Shown here one piece after another: positions 10,138-63,696 of a stretch of 64,000 nt of DNA (position 1 is the first letter of the stretch; every line of letters starts with the position of its first letter). Made by a program: the position numbers and the translations under genes. The DNA is from a virus: UHGV virus genome UHGV-0351052; one strand, written 5' to 3'. The notes beneath the pieces were generated by a model. It ran no database searches, had not been told where the DNA came from, and saw only the letters and a list, made by a program, of their open reading frames with translations.

Positions 10138-10141
10138 CAAT

Positions 10142-10170
10142 GGGGACCGAAAGGTCCCCATATTTTTATT
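10142..10170 (+). terminator. rho-independent terminator after gene 54
   Basis: GGGGACC-GAAA-GGTCCCC hairpin followed by ATATTTTTATTT. Confidence 0.6.
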
Positions 10171-10456
10171 TGCGGAATGAAATGAAAGCAGAAACTGAAG
10201 CAACTAAACTATCTTCAATATAAACTTCAATTTTTACCGGAGCTTCTGACTCAAATTTACCTGTTACTACACCCTGAAAAATACTTTCAGTCTGTTCTGG
10301 CTTTGAAAAATTTTCAGAAGGAAAAATTCCAAACTTTTTATCTGTTCCGAAAATTTTGATAAATTCATCATAAACTGCTTCATTAAAAGCATTATCAGCA
10401 GGAATAACGCCTTCAACTACAAGTTCTTGACCTAAAAAGCGTAAAGAAGATTTCAT
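10166..10456 (-). CDS. hypothetical protein (96 aa)
   Basis: ORF with GAGGAA SD; driven by duplicated early promoter cassette. Confidence 0.6.
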   Translation of the reverse strand: MKSSLRFLGQELVVEGVIPADNAFNEAVYDEFIKIFGTDKKFGIFPSENFSKPEQTESIFQGVVTGKFESEAPVKIEVYIEDSLVASVSAFISFRK

Positions 10457-10487
10457 TTTGTGTTCCTCATGTTATGTCAGTAAGACT

Positions 10488-10517
10488 ACTATAACACAAC
10501 ACGAGGGACTTGTAAAC
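10488..10517 (-). promoter_or_regulatory. sigma70-type early promoter (-35 GTTTACA, 17-bp spacer, -10 TATAGT)
   Basis: motif on minus strand; part of 54-bp cassette identical to 25900-25953. Confidence 0.5.
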
Positions 10518-12574
10518 TACATTTTGAACTTTTTAGACATTCCATTGATGTTAACCAAAGAAGCTAAGATTTGAGAAACTTCATTTTCCTCTTCTTTTGA
10601 TTCTTCTACAAGGAATTGATTAAATCCAGCCATTGGACGAACTTCACCAGTTTCCATTAGATGGTCGCCATCATATACTGATTCTTCTAATTGTTCAGAA
10701 GGAGGAACGATTGTACCTTCGATTAGATACTTGTTATAAGCAGTTTCTTTCATAAAGTACGTACTTACTTTATTAATCTTCAGTAAAATTCCACGCGGTA
10801 GAATAACTTCAGCTTCTGATGGAAATCCTGATAAATGACCTGGAACGATAACTTTGATTCGCTCAGCTCCTTTAATTACCATACCCACGCTAGTTTCAGC
10901 ATCTTCATTAGCATATGTAGAATGACTACCCATATGCATCAAATCTTCTGCATCAACAGAACCTTCTCCTTCGCCAGAAAATACTGCACCGGAATCATCT
11001 AGAGCCATATAGTTTTTACCATGCTCACCGAAGATATTTGGTTTAAGCGATGTGGATACGAAGTTCTTGAAATAGAACATTTTGTTTTCAATGTTATGAC
11101 GCAAAGTTTTAAAGGTAACTTCTTGTCCACGATAAAGCGTAGTTCCTGGAGGAAGAACTGAACCTTTAGCGAATGCAGAATCCAACGTCTCGATGTGCTT
11201 AATGGCACGTTCCATATATTCTTCACGGGTAGAATCTGGTTTACCCAAGAGGAACGAGTTCATTTCAACATATGAATCTGCACAATAATCTTCAATTACA
11301 TCAGACTCAGCCTGAGTCAGTCCTTTTGGAGTTACTTCGGTGCTTGCGTATTCATATGCCTGAGCAGCAGATTCATTAATCAATTTATAAATGCCATTCA
11401 TGACAAATTGAATAATAGCTACCTTTTCGTCTGGTGTGGCTTTAGAACCTTTAACTAAATCATTGATAATTTTCTTAATAACATCAAAGCTATTAGAAAT
11501 ATTAATGTCAGCGAGATCGCTTAAAATTTTATCGGTTTTATAATCAAAGAATTCTTTATTCTTTAAATATTCTTGAGAACCTTGATGTGTTATATCGCTC
11601 TGCAGCCTGATAGACGGATCACGTAAACGCGCATGGGCCAATGCAATATGATTTCGGAAGCTTTCTAGTTCATAATCGTTAGATTTAAAACGAGAGGCAC
11701 TTCTCATACCACCGATAGCTCCTTTGCCGAAGTTTGAACCAATCTGGATAACGCCAGAATTCATTGGTCCTTCTGCTTTATATACCGGAACTTTAGATTC
11801 AAACTCTTGATATTTCTTGGCAGCGAAGCTATCACCCTGAAGTGAAGCATCGACAGTAGAATATTGAGCTTGTGCTGCTAATCGACGACTAATTTTAGTT
11901 TTCTGAATAACCGCTTGGTCAGTACGTTTATCATTTTCTAAAGCAATAGAAGCAGCAACAGCGACAGCTTTAGGAACAGCATTACCTGTTTTAACGTCTA
12001 CATAAACATCACCGACCTTCGATTCAACTTTTGTGAATAACTCAGTTGAAATAGGAGGTACACCTGGAATGTCTTCTAAATTGGCATTTTTACGGTAAAC
12101 CATAATATATGCATACTTTTTATCATAGTCCCAGATTTCCTTTAAAAGAACATAACGACCTGCTCCTTTAGTACGTACTAAACGGTCAGCAATAACTTGC
12201 ATTTGACGAGCAGCTCCATTTGTTTTACTTTTTAGTACGCGGAATAAGCATGCGTCAATTTTATACTGTTTCATTGTTTGAAGAGCAGTATCAAAAACCG
12301 CATTAATGACACCAATTGGATTTCCACCCAAGTTTTTAAGTTTAACTAATGATAGTTTCTCATTAACACCTATCATTACGATATGCATCATTTTATCGCC
12401 TGGCTTAACGTTTTTATTTGTATCACCGCCAGAGGTGTATGTACAAAATCTAAATCCAGGAAGCACGCTTTCTTCACCGGCTTGAATAGCAAAAATTTGA
12501 GGTATTTTATGCTTAGGATTTAAGTTAACAACCGGCGCCGAAGCGCCGTCAAATAATTCTGTAATAAGTTCCAT
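10517..12574 (-). CDS. Alt-like ADP-ribosyltransferase paralog (685 aa)
   Basis: N-terminus MELITELFD and first ~230 aa similar to adjacent Alt; ART motifs R (TTLYRGQ), STS (FVSTSL), ExE (EAEVILPRG); divergent central region. Confidence 0.85.
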   Translation of the reverse strand: MELITELFDGASAPVVNLNPKHKIPQIFAIQAGEESVLPGFRFCTYTSGGDTNKNVKPGDKMMHIVMIGVNEKLSLVKLKNLGGNPIGVINAVFDTALQTMKQYKIDACLFRVLKSKTNGAARQMQVIADRLVRTKGAGRYVLLKEIWDYDKKYAYIMVYRKNANLEDIPGVPPISTELFTKVESKVGDVYVDVKTGNAVPKAVAVAASIALENDKRTDQAVIQKTKISRRLAAQAQYSTVDASLQGDSFAAKKYQEFESKVPVYKAEGPMNSGVIQIGSNFGKGAIGGMRSASRFKSNDYELESFRNHIALAHARLRDPSIRLQSDITHQGSQEYLKNKEFFDYKTDKILSDLADINISNSFDVIKKIINDLVKGSKATPDEKVAIIQFVMNGIYKLINESAAQAYEYASTEVTPKGLTQAESDVIEDYCADSYVEMNSFLLGKPDSTREEYMERAIKHIETLDSAFAKGSVLPPGTTLYRGQEVTFKTLRHNIENKMFYFKNFVSTSLKPNIFGEHGKNYMALDDSGAVFSGEGEGSVDAEDLMHMGSHSTYANEDAETSVGMVIKGAERIKVIVPGHLSGFPSEAEVILPRGILLKINKVSTYFMKETAYNKYLIEGTIVPPSEQLEESVYDGDHLMETGEVRPMAGFNQFLVEESKEEENEVSQILASLVNINGMSKKFKM

Positions 12575-12577
12575 GAT

Positions 12578-14635
12578 TTATCCTTGAACGAACTTGTAAG
12601 GCATGTTTGCAATATCTATGCAAGATGCAATAATTCCAAGAGATGATTCTACTTTTTGTTTAACATTTGATGAAACAAATGATGCAAAATCAACTCTGTC
12701 TTCTATTTCAATATCACCTGTCATTGCAACTACTTCACCGGTTTCCATTAGACGGTCACCGTCATAAATTACTGATTCGGTGAGTTCTTCTGTAGTCATA
12801 ACTTCAGCTTGAATAAGCTTGTTGTTAGTTTTAGCTGTTCCATCATTGTAAGATGCGTCGGTTATTTTATTGACTTTGACCATCAATCCACGCGGCAAAA
12901 TGACTTCCATTTCATTTGAAGGCGCTAAACTTCCACCTGGTAAAACAACGTTGACTTTATCAGCCCCAGTAATAACCCATCCAATTCCAACTAAATTATC
13001 GCTAGAATTAACAAGTCCTTCATCGTTTTTATCGATAGAAATGTTTAGACGCTTTTCGTCTGGTAAAACACCCACAGCTGAATCAGTCATCCAAGTACCA
13101 AAAATGTTTGGATATAATGATGTTGATACAAAATTTCTAAAATAAAAAACTCGATTTTTTACCAATGCTTCATATATTGAAGGTAACATTCGCTGTGAAC
13201 GATATAAAGTAATACCTTTTGGCAGTCGATCACCATTTTTAAAGGCTGAATCTAAATTATCGATGGCTTGTTCTATTTCTGGTGCTGTTAAAATACTTGT
13301 ACGCTCATCTGGATTATATAATCCCAAAAGAGCATTATTCATGTCTACATATCCTGAACCTACGTATTCACGAATTCCGCGTTTTTGTGCCGGTGTGTAT
13401 TTAGATGAATCTTTATTTTCGACTATAGAATGCAATGACCATCCAACGGTAAGAGCATATCCACGTAATTCTCTTCGAATAATCTTTGTTTTTATTGCGT
13501 TCCAAGAATTTTGCACTAACTCATTCGCAGCATCTTGATTTAAATGCGAATGCTTGTTAATATTTCTTTCTAACCAAGCACCTTTATATTTTTCTAAAGT
13601 ATCATCAACTATAGAAGCAATAGTTTCTAAAGTTTTTATTGAAGTAATAGATTCTTTTCGTAATCTTTCTAAAGCTTTATTTTTTATTTCTGCATTAACA
13701 TCAGATTCTTTATCTTCAGGAATTATAGAAGCTTCTCTGAATGCCATTCCAGCTGTAACACTATTAAGAGCATTCTCTAATGCAAATCCTGAAGTAGAAA
13801 TAACAGTTAATTCGTTAGCATCAGAAATTAAAGGCGCGTCAGCGGGTTTATTTAATTCTGCTGCTGAAGCCTCAAATTTTTGAAACATTGGTGTTTCAAA
13901 TCTAGAAGATTCTAACGATTGACTTTGTGCAATTGCTCTACGGGAAATTTTAACTTTAACGATTACAGCTTGGTCAGAACGTTTATCATTTTCTTGCGCA
14001 ATAGATGCTGCAATTGCCTCGTTTTTAGTTACTTGAGCTCCAGTATCTTTATTGATATAAACATCACCGACCTTCGATTCAACCTTAGTAAAGAGCTCGG
14101 TACTAATTTCCGGAACTCCTGGAATGTCTTCTAGTGATACATTTTTGCGATGTATAAGAATATATGCATACTTTTTATCATAATCCCAGAGTTCCTTAAG
14201 AAGGACGTATCTGCCACCTGAACGACTACGGATAAGTCTATCAGCAATAACTTGAATCTGTCGAGCTTGACCAGCGGTTTTAGACTTAAGAATACGGAGC
14301 ATACAGGCATCAATTTTATACTGACGCATTGTTTGCATTGCAACAGTAAAAACTGAATTGATATAATTAATTGGGCTTGGACCGAGACCTTTTAATTTAG
14401 CAATTGAACCTTTAGCAGTTAATGTAAAAGGAACAATATGCATCATTTTATCGCCCATCTTTAAATCACGATTAGTATCACCTCCAGATGTATAGGTACA
14501 TAAACGAAAGCCTGGTTGTTCAATTGCGTCATCAACATGAACTGAAAAAATTTGCGGTATTTTCTTCTTTGGATTTAAGTTTGTAATTGGAAGAGTAGTA
14601 TCTTCGTCAAATAGTTCTGTAATTAGTTCCATCAT
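12578..14635 (-). CDS. alt: Alt ADP-ribosyltransferase (685 aa)
   Basis: matches T4 Alt as recalled; ART motifs R (ITLYRSQ), STS, ExE (EMEVILPRG). Confidence 0.9.
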   Translation of the reverse strand: MMELITELFDEDTTLPITNLNPKKKIPQIFSVHVDDAIEQPGFRLCTYTSGGDTNRDLKMGDKMMHIVPFTLTAKGSIAKLKGLGPSPINYINSVFTVAMQTMRQYKIDACMLRILKSKTAGQARQIQVIADRLIRSRSGGRYVLLKELWDYDKKYAYILIHRKNVSLEDIPGVPEISTELFTKVESKVGDVYINKDTGAQVTKNEAIAASIAQENDKRSDQAVIVKVKISRRAIAQSQSLESSRFETPMFQKFEASAAELNKPADAPLISDANELTVISTSGFALENALNSVTAGMAFREASIIPEDKESDVNAEIKNKALERLRKESITSIKTLETIASIVDDTLEKYKGAWLERNINKHSHLNQDAANELVQNSWNAIKTKIIRRELRGYALTVGWSLHSIVENKDSSKYTPAQKRGIREYVGSGYVDMNNALLGLYNPDERTSILTAPEIEQAIDNLDSAFKNGDRLPKGITLYRSQRMLPSIYEALVKNRVFYFRNFVSTSLYPNIFGTWMTDSAVGVLPDEKRLNISIDKNDEGLVNSSDNLVGIGWVITGADKVNVVLPGGSLAPSNEMEVILPRGLMVKVNKITDASYNDGTAKTNNKLIQAEVMTTEELTESVIYDGDRLMETGEVVAMTGDIEIEDRVDFASFVSSNVKQKVESSLGIIASCIDIANMPYKFVQG

Positions 14636-14655: not shown

Positions 14656-14663
14656 TATTTATA
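14656..14663 (-). promoter_or_regulatory. late promoter TATAAATA (minus strand) upstream of alt
   Basis: plus-strand TATTTATA 21 nt upstream of alt ATG. Confidence 0.45.
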
Positions 14664-14668
14664 AAATT

Positions 14669-14686
14669 AAAGGCCCGAAGGCCTTT
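14669..14686 (-). terminator. stem-loop AAAGGCC-CGAA-GGCCTTT, putative terminator
   Basis: perfect 7-bp GC-rich stem with GNRA-like loop between upstream small ORF and alt promoter. Confidence 0.4.
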
Positions 14687-19048: not shown

Positions 19049-19381
19049 TTATTTTACTACTTTCCAGTGCTTCATGTCAAGTTTACCAACTTTTTTCATC
19101 TTCTCAATTAAGCGTTCGGCACGTTGGCGAGCTGTAACATAATGCCATTCACCTAATTCATTTTGTTCAATTTTTCCAACGATTACTGTATTCAATTCAT
19201 AAATCCAACCAGTAAAGAAATTATGAACTTGAATTGTAAAGGTGAAATCTGTTCCCATACCTTCTGCTGTTTCTACTTCAATAATATCACCTTCAACTGC
19301 CATTAAGAACCACATAGTTTCATCATATTTACCATTGAAGCATTTAGTTTTAACTGTAGCGTTCAGATTAATCGTTTTCAT
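19049..19381 (-). CDS. hypothetical protein (110 aa)
   Basis: ORF. Confidence 0.6.
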   Translation of the reverse strand: MKTINLNATVKTKCFNGKYDETMWFLMAVEGDIIEVETAEGMGTDFTFTIQVHNFFTGWIYELNTVIVGKIEQNELGEWHYVTARQRAERLIEKMKKVGKLDMKHWKVVK

Positions 19382-19459
19382 TTTATTCTCCTTTGTTTGT
19401 GTAAGATAATACTATCACAAAGGAACCATACTGTAAACAACTTTGTGCAATCTTTGGAA

Positions 19460-22918: not shown

Positions 22919-22980
22919 TTCAATTTCCTCACTTGTTTTGGTAGAGCTATAATATCACAACTCTACCGTAAAGTAAACTA

Positions 22981-25048: not shown

Positions 25049-25398
25049 TTAGAAAGGTCCTGGATGTCTTCTGCGAACTTGTTGAAGGAGTTGTTGATTT
25101 GTTTTTCAACCAATCCTGGCTTATGAGCCACCACATCCGCCTTCTTTGCATCTTTGCGCAGTTTTTCATTTTCACGCTCAATAGCAGCAATTGCCTCACG
25201 ATTTTTATTATTCATCGCATCAATATAATTATACTGAATTCGCAAATTATTTAATGCTAAAGCGTTTTCATTGGCTGTTTTTGTAATTTCAGTAACTGAT
25301 GTTTCTAGTCTTTCTACCTTATTTTTTAAAATAATAGATGTTCCGCCAAATGCTATTACAAGTAATAGCAATCCAGCTGTAAAATTACTTACATGCAT
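25045..25398 (-). CDS. i-spanin-like protein (Rz equivalent)
   Basis: N-terminal transmembrane helix followed by coiled-coil-prone charged region; paired with lipoprotein gene. Confidence 0.6.
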   Translation of the reverse strand: MHVSNFTAGLLLLVIAFGGTSIILKNKVERLETSVTEITKTANENALALNNLRIQYNYIDAMNNKNREAIAAIERENEKLRKDAKKADVVAHKPGLVEKQINNSFNKFAEDIQDLSK

Positions 25399-25895
25399 AA
25401 AGTTTTAATAACCTCTATAATATCGTCTTGAGAAAGACCGTTAATTAAAATATGATGTTCAGCTGGAGATTTAGAAATTTTAAAGCATGCCTCAACATCT
25501 TCTGCCATATCCGATGCACTACGATTTGGATTACTAATACCAAGGCGGTGTTTTCCCGTCAAAGGATTAACGATGATATAGCATTTGCAGCTATTGATAT
25601 GAACATTAGGTTGAGTCTGATTAATGAACACTTCACAATCATACTTAGCGAGTTGATTTTCTAAAAAGACTTTCATCTCTTCAACCGCATCAGGAAGCAT
25701 ATCACGGGCTTTCTCAAGACGACGATTTCGATATTCTTTAATGGTCGTTTTCCGCTTGACTTGCTTAGCTAAATCTTTCTTAAGATCGGTGATATATCCA
25801 ACTCGACGATTTCCTTTGAATACAGAAATCCCATCTGTAGTATCACCGTATGCTTCAACGACCATTTCAGTAGTAATAAGTTGTAAATCCATCAT
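25389..25895 (-). CDS. alc: Alc transcription termination factor (host transcription shut-off)
   Basis: 168 aa; matches T4 Alc as recalled. Confidence 0.9.
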   Translation of the reverse strand: MMDLQLITTEMVVEAYGDTTDGISVFKGNRRVGYITDLKKDLAKQVKRKTTIKEYRNRRLEKARDMLPDAVEEMKVFLENQLAKYDCEVFINQTQPNVHINSCKCYIIVNPLTGKHRLGISNPNRSASDMAEDVEACFKISKSPAEHHILINGLSQDDIIEVIKTLCM

Positions 25896-25923
25896 AAAGT
25901 CCTCATGTTATGTCAGTAAGACT

Positions 25924-25953
25924 ACTATAACACAACACGAGGGACTTGTAAAC
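25924..25953 (-). promoter_or_regulatory. sigma70-type early promoter (-35 GTTTACA, -10 TATAGT) upstream of alc
   Basis: second copy of the 54-bp promoter/leader cassette. Confidence 0.5.
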
Positions 25954-25956
25954 AGC

Positions 25957-27544
<1,588 letters not shown>

Positions 27545-27571: not shown

Positions 27572-28074
27572 TTAAAAGTATTTTTTAAAACTCATCATAA
27601 CTTTATCATCAACATCATTATCAATCTGTGCAACAAGGTAAGATGACAGTTCTACTTCTTGTGGCGCGGATTGAACATTATCAGAATTAAGATATTCACG
27701 AATCCAAGGATACGGATGTTTAACCGGAGCATCGGTAATTGGGCATGGAAGACCACACTGTTTCATACGAGATACAGTTAAGTAATCAATAAAGCTCCAC
27801 ATGCTATTTGTATTTAATCCAGGAACATCGCCATCTTTAAATAAATGAACTGCCCAATCTTTTTCTTGGCGGTTAACTTCCATGAAAATATCAACTGCTT
27901 CTTGTTCACACTCTTGAGCAATTTTAACCCATTCATCACCATCAGTGCCAAGTTGAAGTTGACGAATAATATATTGAGTGCCTTTAAGGTGAAGCTGCTC
28001 ATCACGTGCAATGAACTTCATAATCTTGGCATTACCTTCCATGATTTCCATGTTCTTATGGAAGTTAAAGGTAC
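27572..28074 (-). CDS. nrdB: ribonucleotide reductase small subunit NrdB, exon 2
   Basis: frame continues upstream of track ATG to ...TFNFHKNMEIMEGNAK; conserved R2 motif MEGNAK; boundary approximate. Confidence 0.8.
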
Positions 28075-28668
28075 CGTTATGTTCAATTGAGCTCGCTAAT
28101 TCTCAACCCGTTCTCTTATGAACTGCTACATATTACTATGCAGACCAGACTATATCACAATCCCAGAGGGATTCTCCCCATTTCGAGTCGCTTGACCCTA
28201 CGTCCGAAGACTAGTCGTTGAACCTTGCTTTGCAATTGTCGCCGTGCCATCGTTTATATGTTGATGGTGATAAATCTTTCTTATCACAATATGGACAATT
28301 CAATTGAATTCTATTTGGATTTAATTTGCATCTGTCATTATGTTTTAAATAAAATCCAGGACCTTTACCAATGTGACCGCAGAAATCACATGTGATTTCT
28401 TTTTGTGCAGGATGGGTCCCGTTCTTAACCATTTCTAATGTTTTTGCTGATGTTCTTTTCTTATGGTCTTCCATCAGAATCTTTAGGTATAGGTCCGTTA
28501 GCATCTATCCAAATTTTTCTATAGTTCAATTGTGCATCCTCTTAAAAGTATAATCATATTATACTAATTAAAGGTGCAAGCAAAACCTTGGCTGCTAGTT
28601 TTCCTATAAAGGACTTTCCAGCAATTAAAGGAGTTTTCGATAAACGTTACCGTTTAAAGGCGCATTTT
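28075..28668 (-). mobile_element. group I self-splicing intron in nrdB (about 594 nt)
   Basis: exon 1 frame terminates after YVSFA; intron splits a Cys codon (T|GT); shares core elements (CAGACTATATC..., CGAGTC-CTTGACCCTAC, GTCGTT) with td intron; ends in G. Confidence 0.75.
28211..28504 (-). pseudogene. truncated intron endonuclease ORF (I-TevIII-like zinc-finger remnant, 97 aa)
   Basis: ORF inside nrdB intron with CxxC/CxxC zinc-finger motifs but no HNH catalytic motif. Confidence 0.6.
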
Positions 28669-29344
28669 ACGCAAAAGATACATAAAAACGAATAGCTTCT
28701 AAGGCATTAATAACGTGCAAACAGAGGTAAAGAGATTTCATTAAAGCACGTTTAGCTTCGGCTTCTTGTTTAATAGCTCGGTTTAAACGAAAGACAGCAT
28801 CAGGAGATTCTTTAGCTAGTTCTACAAATTCTTTAGCATTTTCCCATTCACGGGTTTTAATCAGAACATCATCATAATAGCGTCCAATAGATTCGGCTCG
28901 TTTCATGATTGCTTCATCTAATACAATCTCATCAAATACCTTTGACGGATCAGTATAAAGATTTCGCATGATATGTGTATATGAACGGCTGTGAATAGTT
29001 TCACTAAAAGTCCACGTAGCAACCCATGTATCAAGGCTTGGGTCTGAAATTAATGACATAAGTACAGCAGACGGCGCACGACCCTGAATGCTATCCAAAA
29101 GTGATTGATACTTCAGATTATTAGTAAAAATATTTTGCTGATACTGAGGAAGCTTATTAAACTGTGCAGCATCCATCATTAAGTTTACTTCTTCGGGACG
29201 CCAGAAAAAACTGATCTGTCGCTCAATGAGTTCTTCAAATACTCGATGTCGTTGAATATCATATCGAGCTAAACCTAATCCAGAACCAAAGAACATCGGT
29301 TCATTCAAAACATCAACTGGATTTGTATTAAAAACTGTGCTCAT
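28669..29344 (-). CDS. nrdB: ribonucleotide reductase small subunit NrdB, exon 1
   Basis: 225-codon frame ending ...AIRFYVSFA followed by in-frame stop at intron start. Confidence 0.85.
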
Positions 29345-36038: not shown

Positions 36039-36081
36039 ATTATTTTCCTCTCTAATCATCAGCAGTATTGCCGATAGTTGT

Positions 36082-36111
36082 ATAGTACCATGGAAGAACA
36101 AGGATGTAAAC
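36082..36111 (-). promoter_or_regulatory. sigma70-type early promoter (-35 GTTTACA, 17 bp, -10 TACTAT)
   Basis: member of repeated promoter family with shared leader ACAACTATC. Confidence 0.5.
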
Positions 36112-36120
36112 AGTTTTGTG

Positions 36121-36161
36121 AAAAAATTTTTGAAATAAAAAAGGGGACCTCTAGGGTCCCC
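36121..36161 (-). terminator. rho-independent terminator downstream of gene 32
   Basis: GGGGACC-loop-GGTCCCC hairpin followed on minus strand by TTTTTTATTTC. Confidence 0.6.
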
Positions 36162-50076: not shown

Positions 50077-50229
50077 TCAATTAGTTGACTTTGTTATAAT
50101 ATCATCAGACGCTTGATTTGTAAACTGGTCTGTGTTATTTTCTTCAAAAATTTTTTCTACGAATTCCTTGAACGATTCACGTTCCTGAGCTACATTATGC
50201 TCGATTACTTTTTCAAGATTATGACTCAT
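50077..50229 (-). CDS. hypothetical small acidic protein (50 aa)
   Basis: hand-translated ORF MSHNLEKVIEHN...; ATGA overlap with upstream gene; below track size cut-off. Confidence 0.35.
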   Translation of the reverse strand: MSHNLEKVIEHNVAQERESFKEFVEKIFEENNTDQFTNQASDDIITKSTN

Positions 50230-52534: not shown

Positions 52535-52575
52535 TTTCTAATCTCCGTAATTCTGTATCAGTAGTTGATAGTTGT

Positions 52576-52605
52576 ATAGTACCACAGTATGCTTTGGTTG
52601 TAAAC
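52576..52605 (-). promoter_or_regulatory. sigma70-type early promoter upstream of motA (-35 GTTTACA, 17 bp, -10 TACTAT)
   Basis: repeated promoter family; shared leader ACAACTATCAAC. Confidence 0.55.
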
Positions 52606-52626
52606 CGTTTTGTGAAAAAATTTTGA

Positions 52627-55581: not shown

Positions 55582-55816
55582 AGTAAACGTTTAATACATC
55601 AATCATTAAAACGATTGGGAATATACTCAAAACTATTAGTATTATAACTACATTCCATATAGCTTTAACAATCTTTTTCATTTTCTGTTCCTCCGTAGTT
55701 GATAGTTGTATAGTACCACAGAAGAACAGTCTTGTAAACAACTTTTTTAAAAATATTCGTAATAAATGTGAATACCAACTACTACCGCTGAAACCTGTGC
55801 AACCCACCACGCACAA
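55568..55816 (-). CDS. small membrane protein (true start probably internal MKKIVK)
   Basis: track ORF spans an early promoter, so only the distal ~37 codons are likely translated. Confidence 0.35.
   Translation of the reverse strand: MCVVGCTGFSGSSWYSHLLRIFLKKLFTRLFFCGTIQLSTTEEQKMKKIVKAIWNVVIILIVLSIFPIVLMIDVLNVYFGFM
55710..55739 (-). promoter_or_regulatory. sigma70-type early promoter (-35 GTTTACA, 17 bp, -10 TACTAT)
   Basis: repeated promoter family. Confidence 0.5.
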
Positions 55817-55985
55817 GCAATAAGTACAGAATTCAAAATTTTCATAATAACCTCATCACAAAAGTAAATGTTAAACAAATTACTGGAATACTAATTAACC
55901 AAACAAAACACCACCATAATGAACTCATAGCTCAATCTCAGCGATTTTCATTTTATTCTCCAAATCCGTATCAGTTGATAGTTGT

Positions 55986-56015
55986 ATAGTACCACGGTCC
56001 TTGTGGTATGTAAAC
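55986..56015 (-). promoter_or_regulatory. sigma70-type early promoter (-35 GTTTACA, 17 bp, -10 TACTAT)
   Basis: repeated promoter family, immediately downstream of denB. Confidence 0.5.
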
Positions 56016-56031
56016 TGTTTTGTGAATTTTT

Positions 56032-56851: not shown

Positions 56852-56887
56852 AATTTCCTCTTAAAACAAAAGGGCCGAAGCCCTTAT

Positions 56888-63366: not shown

Positions 63367-63435
63367 CACTTATCCTCGTTTGGTTTCGGGAATATTATAC
63401 TCCGGTAATCATAAAGCTAAAGGCCCGAAGGCCTT

Positions 63436-63696
63436 TTATTTAAAACGAATAGTCGAATCCTTGAAGAATAGTCCAGAACATACTGTTCCTTCTACTTTCT
63501 GTCCAGTAGGTCCAATAGCACGAAATCCAGTATGCTGGAAATCATTTTCAGAGCAACCGAACCAGTTATATCCAGTGATTTCAATATTAGTAAAACCACT
63601 TGAAGACAAAACTTTGGTTGCATTATCAGCATCAGTACATCCTATTAAAGACACTGCTAATACTAATGCTGCAATAGAACGATTAACATATTTCAT
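63436..63696 (-). CDS. putative lipoprotein (86 aa)
   Basis: signal peptide with lipobox LIGC. Confidence 0.55.
   Translation of the reverse strand: MKYVNRSIAALVLAVSLIGCTDADNATKVLSSSGFTNIEITGYNWFGCSENDFQHTGFRAIGPTGQKVEGTVCSGLFFKDSTIRFK

Follow-up and report, generated by a model that had tools for sequence, protein, structure and literature searches.

Two identical 54-bp cassettes in the stretch of viral DNA analysed here (genome UHGV-0351052, 64,000 nucleotides, hereafter the window) each combine an early promoter with a predicted RNA hairpin that would bury the Shine-Dalgarno sequence (SD) of the following gene, and we hold with somewhat better than even confidence that they act as gates, admitting a transcript to translation according to the promoter from which it originates. 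On this model, whose start site, translation block and direction of copying are all predicted, the two genes served, alt.-3 and alc, are probably translated only from transcripts begun at their own promoters. The window belongs to a Tequatrovirus, and across both loci is 97.5–98.5% identical to RB3, RB32, T6 and T4. The features on which the argument depends are these:

10464..10517, minus strand: cassette copy A, 54 bp, filling the alt.-2/alt.-3 intergenic space
10511..10517, minus strand: -35 GTTTACA of copy A, from the promoter consensus scan
10488..10493, minus strand: -10 TATAGT with upstream TG of copy A, from the same scan; start predicted at about 10481
10487..10506, minus strand: 5' arm of the copy A hairpin (spacer and -10, with anti-SD CCCTC), upstream of the predicted start
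10465..10482, minus strand: 3' arm of the copy A hairpin (leader and GAGG of the SD GAGGA)
10464-10468, minus strand: SD GAGGA of copy A, 7 nt before the alt.-3 ATG
10166..10456, minus strand: alt.-3, 96 aa, DUF5498, served by copy A
10517..12574, minus strand: full-length Alt paralog in the alt.-2 position, the upstream gene reading into copy A
14656..14663, minus strand: late promoter TATAAATA just upstream of alt, with a terminator hairpin before it; source of late read-through towards alt.-3
10140..10161, no strand assigned: bidirectional intrinsic terminator between alt.-3 and gene 54, closing the alt.-3 unit
25900..25953, minus strand: cassette copy B, 54 bp, in the rnlA/alc intergenic space, starting 3 nt past the rnlA stop codon
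25947..25953, minus strand: -35 GTTTACA of copy B, from the promoter consensus scan
25924..25929, minus strand: -10 TATAGT with upstream TG of copy B, from the same scan; start predicted at about 25917
25923..25942, minus strand: 5' arm of the copy B hairpin, its stem extended by pairing of AGT 25944-25946 with ACT 25897-25899
25901..25918, minus strand: 3' arm of the copy B hairpin (leader and GAGG of the SD GAGGA)
25900-25904, minus strand: SD GAGGA of copy B, 7 nt before the T4-annotated (second) alc ATG
25389..25895, minus strand: alc, inhibitor of host transcription, served by copy B; the start annotated in T4 is the second ATG, at 25892
25957..27081, minus strand: rnlA (RNA ligase 1, gene 63), the upstream gene reading into copy B

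Sequence search and repeat finding across the window established that the repeat is direct and exact, with the copies 15,436 bp apart. It reads TCCTCATGTTATGTCAGTAAGACTACTATAACACAACACGAGGGACTTGTAAAC on the plus strand, occurs exactly twice, and its identity ends sharply at either edge (10463 T against 25899 G; 10518 T against 25954 A). This self-search bears out the preliminary description, which had reported an identical 54-bp cassette present twice some 15 kb apart; its coordinates, which span 54 bp, were right, but the string it gave was 53 nt long and lacked the leading T. Each copy amounts to nearly the entire intergenic region, from the upstream stop codon (0–3 nt away) to the SD, and in copy A the G of GTTTACA is itself the final base of the alt.-2 stop codon. 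No match to the repeat arose in 100 dinucleotide-preserving shuffles, and when the window was scanned with up to nine mismatches allowed, nothing beyond the two copies came to light. Similarity among the window's other early promoters (repeat family D1) is only 63–81%, so that the pair stands well above the general similarity expected of a promoter consensus; the shuffles and this comparison between them rule out chance or generic promoter similarity as the source of the repeat. Family D1 itself comprises five early promoters, 63–81% alike, at 36069-36122, 50083-50136, 52563-52616, 55697-55750 and 55973-56026, in which a leader, ACAACTATCAACT on the minus strand, is conserved in addition to the -35 and -10.

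On the minus strand both copies read GTTTACA-N17-TATAGT, followed by a short leader and GAGGA, and the consensus scan recognised each as TTTACA-17-TATAGT with 10 of 12 matches and a TG-extended -10. The -35, the spacer of 17±1 bp, the TAnnnT hexamer and the TG that together characterise a T4-type early sigma-70 promoter were thus found at both loci, and in public records the copies bear the annotation of promoter or 'predicted early promoter'. From promoter geometry, transcription is predicted to begin about 7 nt past TATAGT, at about cassette position 37. The earlier assignment of a promoter, leader and ribosome-binding site to the minus strand was accordingly upheld, with GAGGA lying 7 nt before each ATG, and the genes that it named as served, a 96-aa gene and alc, proved to be those encoding Alt.-3 (DUF5498) and Alc. 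Both cassettes lie directly upstream of genes that are classed in T4 omics tables as 'early RNA, early protein' (PMC9697503 supplements), a classification that fits the suggestion in the preliminary description that the two genes are co-regulated. Alt.-3 is non-essential, and versions of it extended at the C terminus let T4 escape the CmdTAC defence (PMC11618068).

The same 54 nucleotides encode a strong hairpin, missed in the preliminary description, in which positions 12–31 (the spacer, with the anti-SD CCCTC a few bases past the -35, and the -10) pair with positions 36–53 (the leader and GAGG of the SD). Its computed free energy is about -22 kcal/mol for the 54-mer alone; folded within 81 nt of its surroundings it reaches -23 to -27 kcal/mol (z-scores from -4.0 to -4.5). 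The 40-nt leader from the -10 hexamer onwards, in which the greater part of the 5' arm is missing, is no more stable than shuffled sequences. Because the 5' arm in its entirety precedes the predicted start, RNA made from the cassette's own promoter should be unable to form the hairpin, and both arms are present only in transcripts reading through from upstream. The computed energy required to open the SD, a calculated and not a probed quantity, is 11.1 and 9.8 kcal/mol in read-through RNA and 4.0 and 1.1 kcal/mol in own-promoter RNA; the 4.0 kcal/mol is for the own-promoter alt.-3 transcript, in which some pairing of the SD with coding sequence persists. The hairpin would also explain why identity persists across those parts of the repeat that are unconstrained in an ordinary promoter. 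An intrinsic (rho-independent) terminator was considered and rejected at these sites, since the stem runs on into ACACAAAATG or CTTTATGATG, no U-tract lies 3' of the stem in any lineage, and a terminator scan makes no call at either cassette. A search of the whole window against Rfam at gathering thresholds returned no family.

At both loci an early gene lies downstream, and on the same strand, of a gene with a later expression profile, which is the setting in which a gate by promoter of origin would be useful. The T4 omics data class rnlA as 'early RNA, late protein' and alt.-1/alt.-2 as 'middle' (PMC9697503 supplements), and no terminator was seen between alt, the Alt paralog and alt.-3. The neighbourhood has other features of note. 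The two Alt-type ADP-ribosyltransferase genes, each of 685 aa and full-length, stand in tandem (10517-12574 and 12578-14635, minus strand) and, where they repeat one another at an offset of 2055 bp (families D2 and D3), are about 71–73% identical as DNA; in T4, only the fragments alt.-1 and alt.-2 remain of the second Alt copy. A GC-rich, terminator-like stem-loop, AAAGGCCC-GAAG-GGCCTTT, at 14656-14686 is followed directly by the alt late promoter TATAAATA on the minus strand, giving a terminator/late-promoter composite, and similar stem-loops occur at 56856-56886 and 63406-63436. Elsewhere, nrdB (ribonucleotide reductase small chain; 27572-29344, minus strand) matches Pfam in two separate pieces, 28667-29344 and 27572-28051, and the roughly 615 nt between them contain a 97-aa ORF without Pfam match; the split resembles that made by the group I intron of T4 nrdB, yet no Rfam family passes the gathering thresholds in the window.

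It is proposed that each copy constitutes a complete module of early sigma-70 promoter, 5' leader and SD, which at the same time encodes an RNA hairpin. RNA initiated at the cassette, about 7 nt after TATAGT, would lack the 5' arm, so that its SD would be open and it could be translated right after infection. RNA that enters from upstream, late alt transcripts at alt.-3 and rnlA transcripts at alc, would by comparison contain both arms and fold into the hairpin of about -22 kcal/mol, with the SD buried. Neither Alc nor Alt.-3 would then be translated from read-through RNA, and both would be made only while the early promoters fire. The copies may be kept identical, or nearly so, by the joint constraints of promoter and helix together with occasional exchange between the loci. 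A possible weakness of such masking is that the stem might be opened in part by ribosomes finishing the upstream gene, whose stop codon lies 8–14 nt before the anti-SD. Neither alc nor alt.-3 is named in the DksA RNA-seq paper, and a literature search for cassette sequence strings yielded chance matches only.

The same design is met again elsewhere in the window. The SD is masked at four of the 13 GTTTAC-type promoter candidates that have a downstream ORF, namely the two cassette copies and the candidates at 55739 and 19438, and the spacer pairs with the downstream SD in only two of the 11 candidates other than the cassettes. The early promoter at 55739 (minus strand, 37-aa ORF) has a spacer that pairs with the SD in a 15-bp helix, and that at 19438 (minus strand) does so in a 9-bp helix ahead of a 110-aa ORF (19049-19381) whose size matches that of gp30.8. 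At the promoters at 22978, 35115 and 19046, hairpins cover the spacer, -10 and leader, and do not reach the SD.

Comparison across T4-like phages lends support to the pairing at alc. The gap between rnlA and alc has the same architecture, built from other sequence, in Gelderlandvirus, Karamvirus, Dhakavirus, Bragavirus and a Klebsiella phage of unclassified genus, and SD masking was found in 29 of 38 usable alc loci from IMG/VR. In the masking loci an anti-SD (TCTCC, TCCTC, ACCTCTC and the like) follows directly after GTTTACA and pairs with the SD (GGAGA, GAGGA, GAGAGGT and the like); the helices run for 9–18 bp and end on the SD, while in shuffled sequences the longest helix averages 5.6 bp and only 2.8% reach 9 bp. 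Covariation was assessed in a promoter-anchored alignment with one fitted register per sequence, using shuffles and displaced pairing partners as controls. Standard pairs are formed by 84.4% of cells in the proposed structure, against 40–49% when the partner is slid by 1–3 columns; cells changed on both sides number 82 against 9–21; and the covariation score is 0.51 against at most 0.16. In this register-fitted alignment compensatory changes, on both sides of the helix, occur in 10 of the 15 pairs. No consensus structure emerged when RNAalifold was run on a plain MAFFT alignment of 26 alc leaders, since the register of the arms shifts from one lineage to the next.

Masking at alc is nonetheless dispensable, since Mosigvirus, Tegunavirus and some other lineages are without it. 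The alc locus of a Mosigvirus-like phage has only a mini-hairpin within the spacer, that of Tegunavirus has a hairpin ending short of the SD, and that of an Acinetobacter phage has no hairpin. Gaprivervirus-like alc loci carry an extra small ORF between rnlA and alc and have no GTTTACA promoter; even so, another local hairpin (GGTTCCATCA...TGATGAGGACC) buries the alc SD there.

At alt.-3 the picture is different. In Gaprivervirus, Dhakavirus, Mosigvirus, Marfavirus and Karamvirus an early promoter lies directly upstream of alt.-3, but it leaves the SD unmasked and bears no sequence relation to the alc promoter of the genus concerned; among the genera compared, only Tequatrovirus has the SD-masking cassette in this position. 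Masking thus occurs across lineages at alc and in Tequatrovirus alone at alt.-3, a distribution which suggests that alc is the ancestral site of the SD-masking module and that alt.-3 received a copy of it from alc in the Tequatrovirus ancestor. The early promoters of the same five genera have in common a short mini-hairpin, and nothing longer at alt.-3, in the spacer, for example CACCACAAGGATGTGG or ACACATGGATGTGT, with an AAGGA or TGGA loop. Elements termed PeSLs (promoter-early stem-loops) have been described as composite intergenic units, repeated within a genome, in which a sigma-70-like early promoter carries a stem-loop, either in the spacer from -35 to -10 or across the -10 itself, and the 3' end supplies an SD and ATG (Arbiol 2010, Comeau 2014; PMC2839356, PMC4122927), and the spacer mini-hairpins may be PeSLs of the 'between -35 and -10' class.

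The preliminary description had seen in the identity of the copies a sign of recent copying or recombination, and had proposed a comparison with related phages; that comparison, once made, spoke against recency. A BLAST search with the 54-mer placed the repeat in all 500 Tequatrovirus records among the matches listed, at 999 places, so that essentially every one of these genomes has two copies. T4 has both, with one mismatch between them, at a loop base. At least one copy is identical to the common form in 258 of the 500 Tequatrovirus records listed, and both copies in the window keep that form. Pattern scans of IMG/VR and of metagenomes contributed only 8 and 6 Tequatrovirus stretches, and exchange between copies was sampled in six genomes chosen for their divergence, within which the two copies differ at 0–6 positions. 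The duplication is, on the sequences compared, old and genus-wide and not recent. In PP01 both copies are identical and carry a derived two-base haplotype (A29, A32), which in phage P8 is found at the alt.-3 locus only, a distribution more in keeping with occasional exchange between the loci than with constant homogenisation. Within Tequatrovirus the pair C15-G50 is seen also as U-G and then as U-A, and five single substitutions break a pair of the hairpin.

An alternative drawn from the work on PeSLs would have the stem-loop attenuate or terminate upstream transcription and the repeat serve as a patch of homology for modular recombination and gene shuffling. The anatomy of the cassette matches the published description, one public record labels the alt.-3 copy a terminator, the region upstream of alt.-3 is variable (the alt.-1/alt.-2 remnants of T4 as against the full Alt paralog here), and the derived haplotype common to both loci in PP01 suggests exchange. 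We regard this alternative as unlikely all the same: neither a U-tract in any lineage nor a terminator call supports it, and in 29 of the 38 IMG/VR loci the 3' arm ends exactly on the SD, for which a terminator would have no need. As for recombination, the T4 deletion falls within the Alt paralog, with its breakpoints away from the cassette border, rnlA-alc synteny is conserved across genera, and a deletion from one copy to the other, 15.4 kb in length, would take with it gene 30 (DNA ligase), gene 31 and other genes. SD-masking hairpins are also a classic arrangement for translational coupling, by which initiation at alc and alt.-3 on long transcripts would be tied to ribosomes finishing the upstream gene, without silencing. 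The upstream stop codons do lie 0–3 nt before the -35, near the stem, but the anti-SD starts 11–14 nt past the stop codon here, and 12–16 nt past it in other genera, which is at or past the usual reach of a terminating ribosome; moreover, in T4 the rnlA protein is late but Alc is early, which argues against coupled output and leaves coupling, to our minds, distinctly improbable.

Equally hard to accept is the plainer proposition that a promoter was duplicated, its identity reflecting the copy event and promoter constraint, with the hairpin incidental. Although both copies match the early-promoter consensus and some substitutions in relatives break pairs, this proposition does not account for covariation across genera at alc, for fold z-scores of about -4, or for identity that runs through the spacer and leader, which are free to differ in the promoters of family D1. 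It might finally be supposed that a perfectly conserved 54-mer at two loci is a binding site, that is, a shared operator for a phage or host regulator (RegA, for example, or a DNA-binding protein) or a RegB cleavage site, through which both genes are co-regulated; early mRNAs are known targets of RegA and RegB. We consider this very improbable indeed, as RegA sites are AU-rich and overlap the AUG, whereas the repeat ends before it, and as it is the pairing and not the sequence that is conserved across genera. A RegB site in particular was rejected, the SD being GAGGA and the cassette containing no GGAG motif.

Returning to a promoter-of-origin gate formed by early promoter and SD-masking hairpin, it is tempting to extend the argument to the wider group. 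The anti-SD in the alc spacer would be kept by compensatory changes in many T4-like lineages and would confine Alc synthesis to the first minutes of infection; the module would then have been copied to alt.-3, and many 'PeSL' stem-loops would be translational insulators and not terminators. To this broader statement we give about even chances. If the gate is confirmed, it would explain how closely packed genes of different temporal classes on the same strand (late alt and early alt.-3; rnlA and alc) can be insulated without terminators, and it would supply a functional reason for the promoter-overlapping stem-loops (PeSLs) of T4-like genomes. The cassette is also a compact natural part, in which promoter, insulator and ribosome-binding site occupy about 54 bp, with a possible use in phage engineering.

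Set beside known systems, the cassettes resemble T4 early promoters of the GTTTAC-N17-TAnnnT class in -35, spacer, extended -10 and position before early genes; they differ in that typical early promoters in the window share consensus positions only, whereas the cassettes are alike throughout. They also fit the anatomy of PeSLs, having an early promoter, a stem-loop over the -10, an SD and ATG, and an intergenic location. PeSL stems have, however, been interpreted as recombination sites and as elements that terminate or attenuate transcription, not as a means of masking the SD (PMC2839356, PMC4122927), while the cassette has the SD itself in its 3' arm, lacks a U-tract and shows no rearrangement mapping to its borders. 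The closest parallel is with the T4 genes e, soc, 49 and I-TevI, in which a promoter in the region of the 5' strand gives rise to translatable RNA and longer RNAs mask the SD (PMC3014915). The cassettes have the same geometry and computed energetics, with the SD sequestered on read-through RNA, and what marks out a masking hairpin is found in them by computation: an SD in a stable helix, own transcripts predicted to lack the 5' strand, and covariation in relatives. Neither alc nor alt.-3 appears among the masking-hairpin cases in the T4 reviews examined (PMC3014915 among them). The promoters of e, soc, 49 and I-TevI are late (gp55) and restrict translation to late infection; neither cassette contains the late promoter TATAAATA, and their early sigma-70 promoter is predicted to impose early restriction. 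The finding leaves the general picture of T4 biology fundamentally unchanged, as a new example of a known T4 trick and not a new kind of element. T4 is well known to conceal ribosome-binding sites in hairpins that form on some of its transcripts and not on others; if true, the finding would extend that strategy to an early promoter, and the cassette would be the early-promoter mirror image of the late-promoter hairpins.
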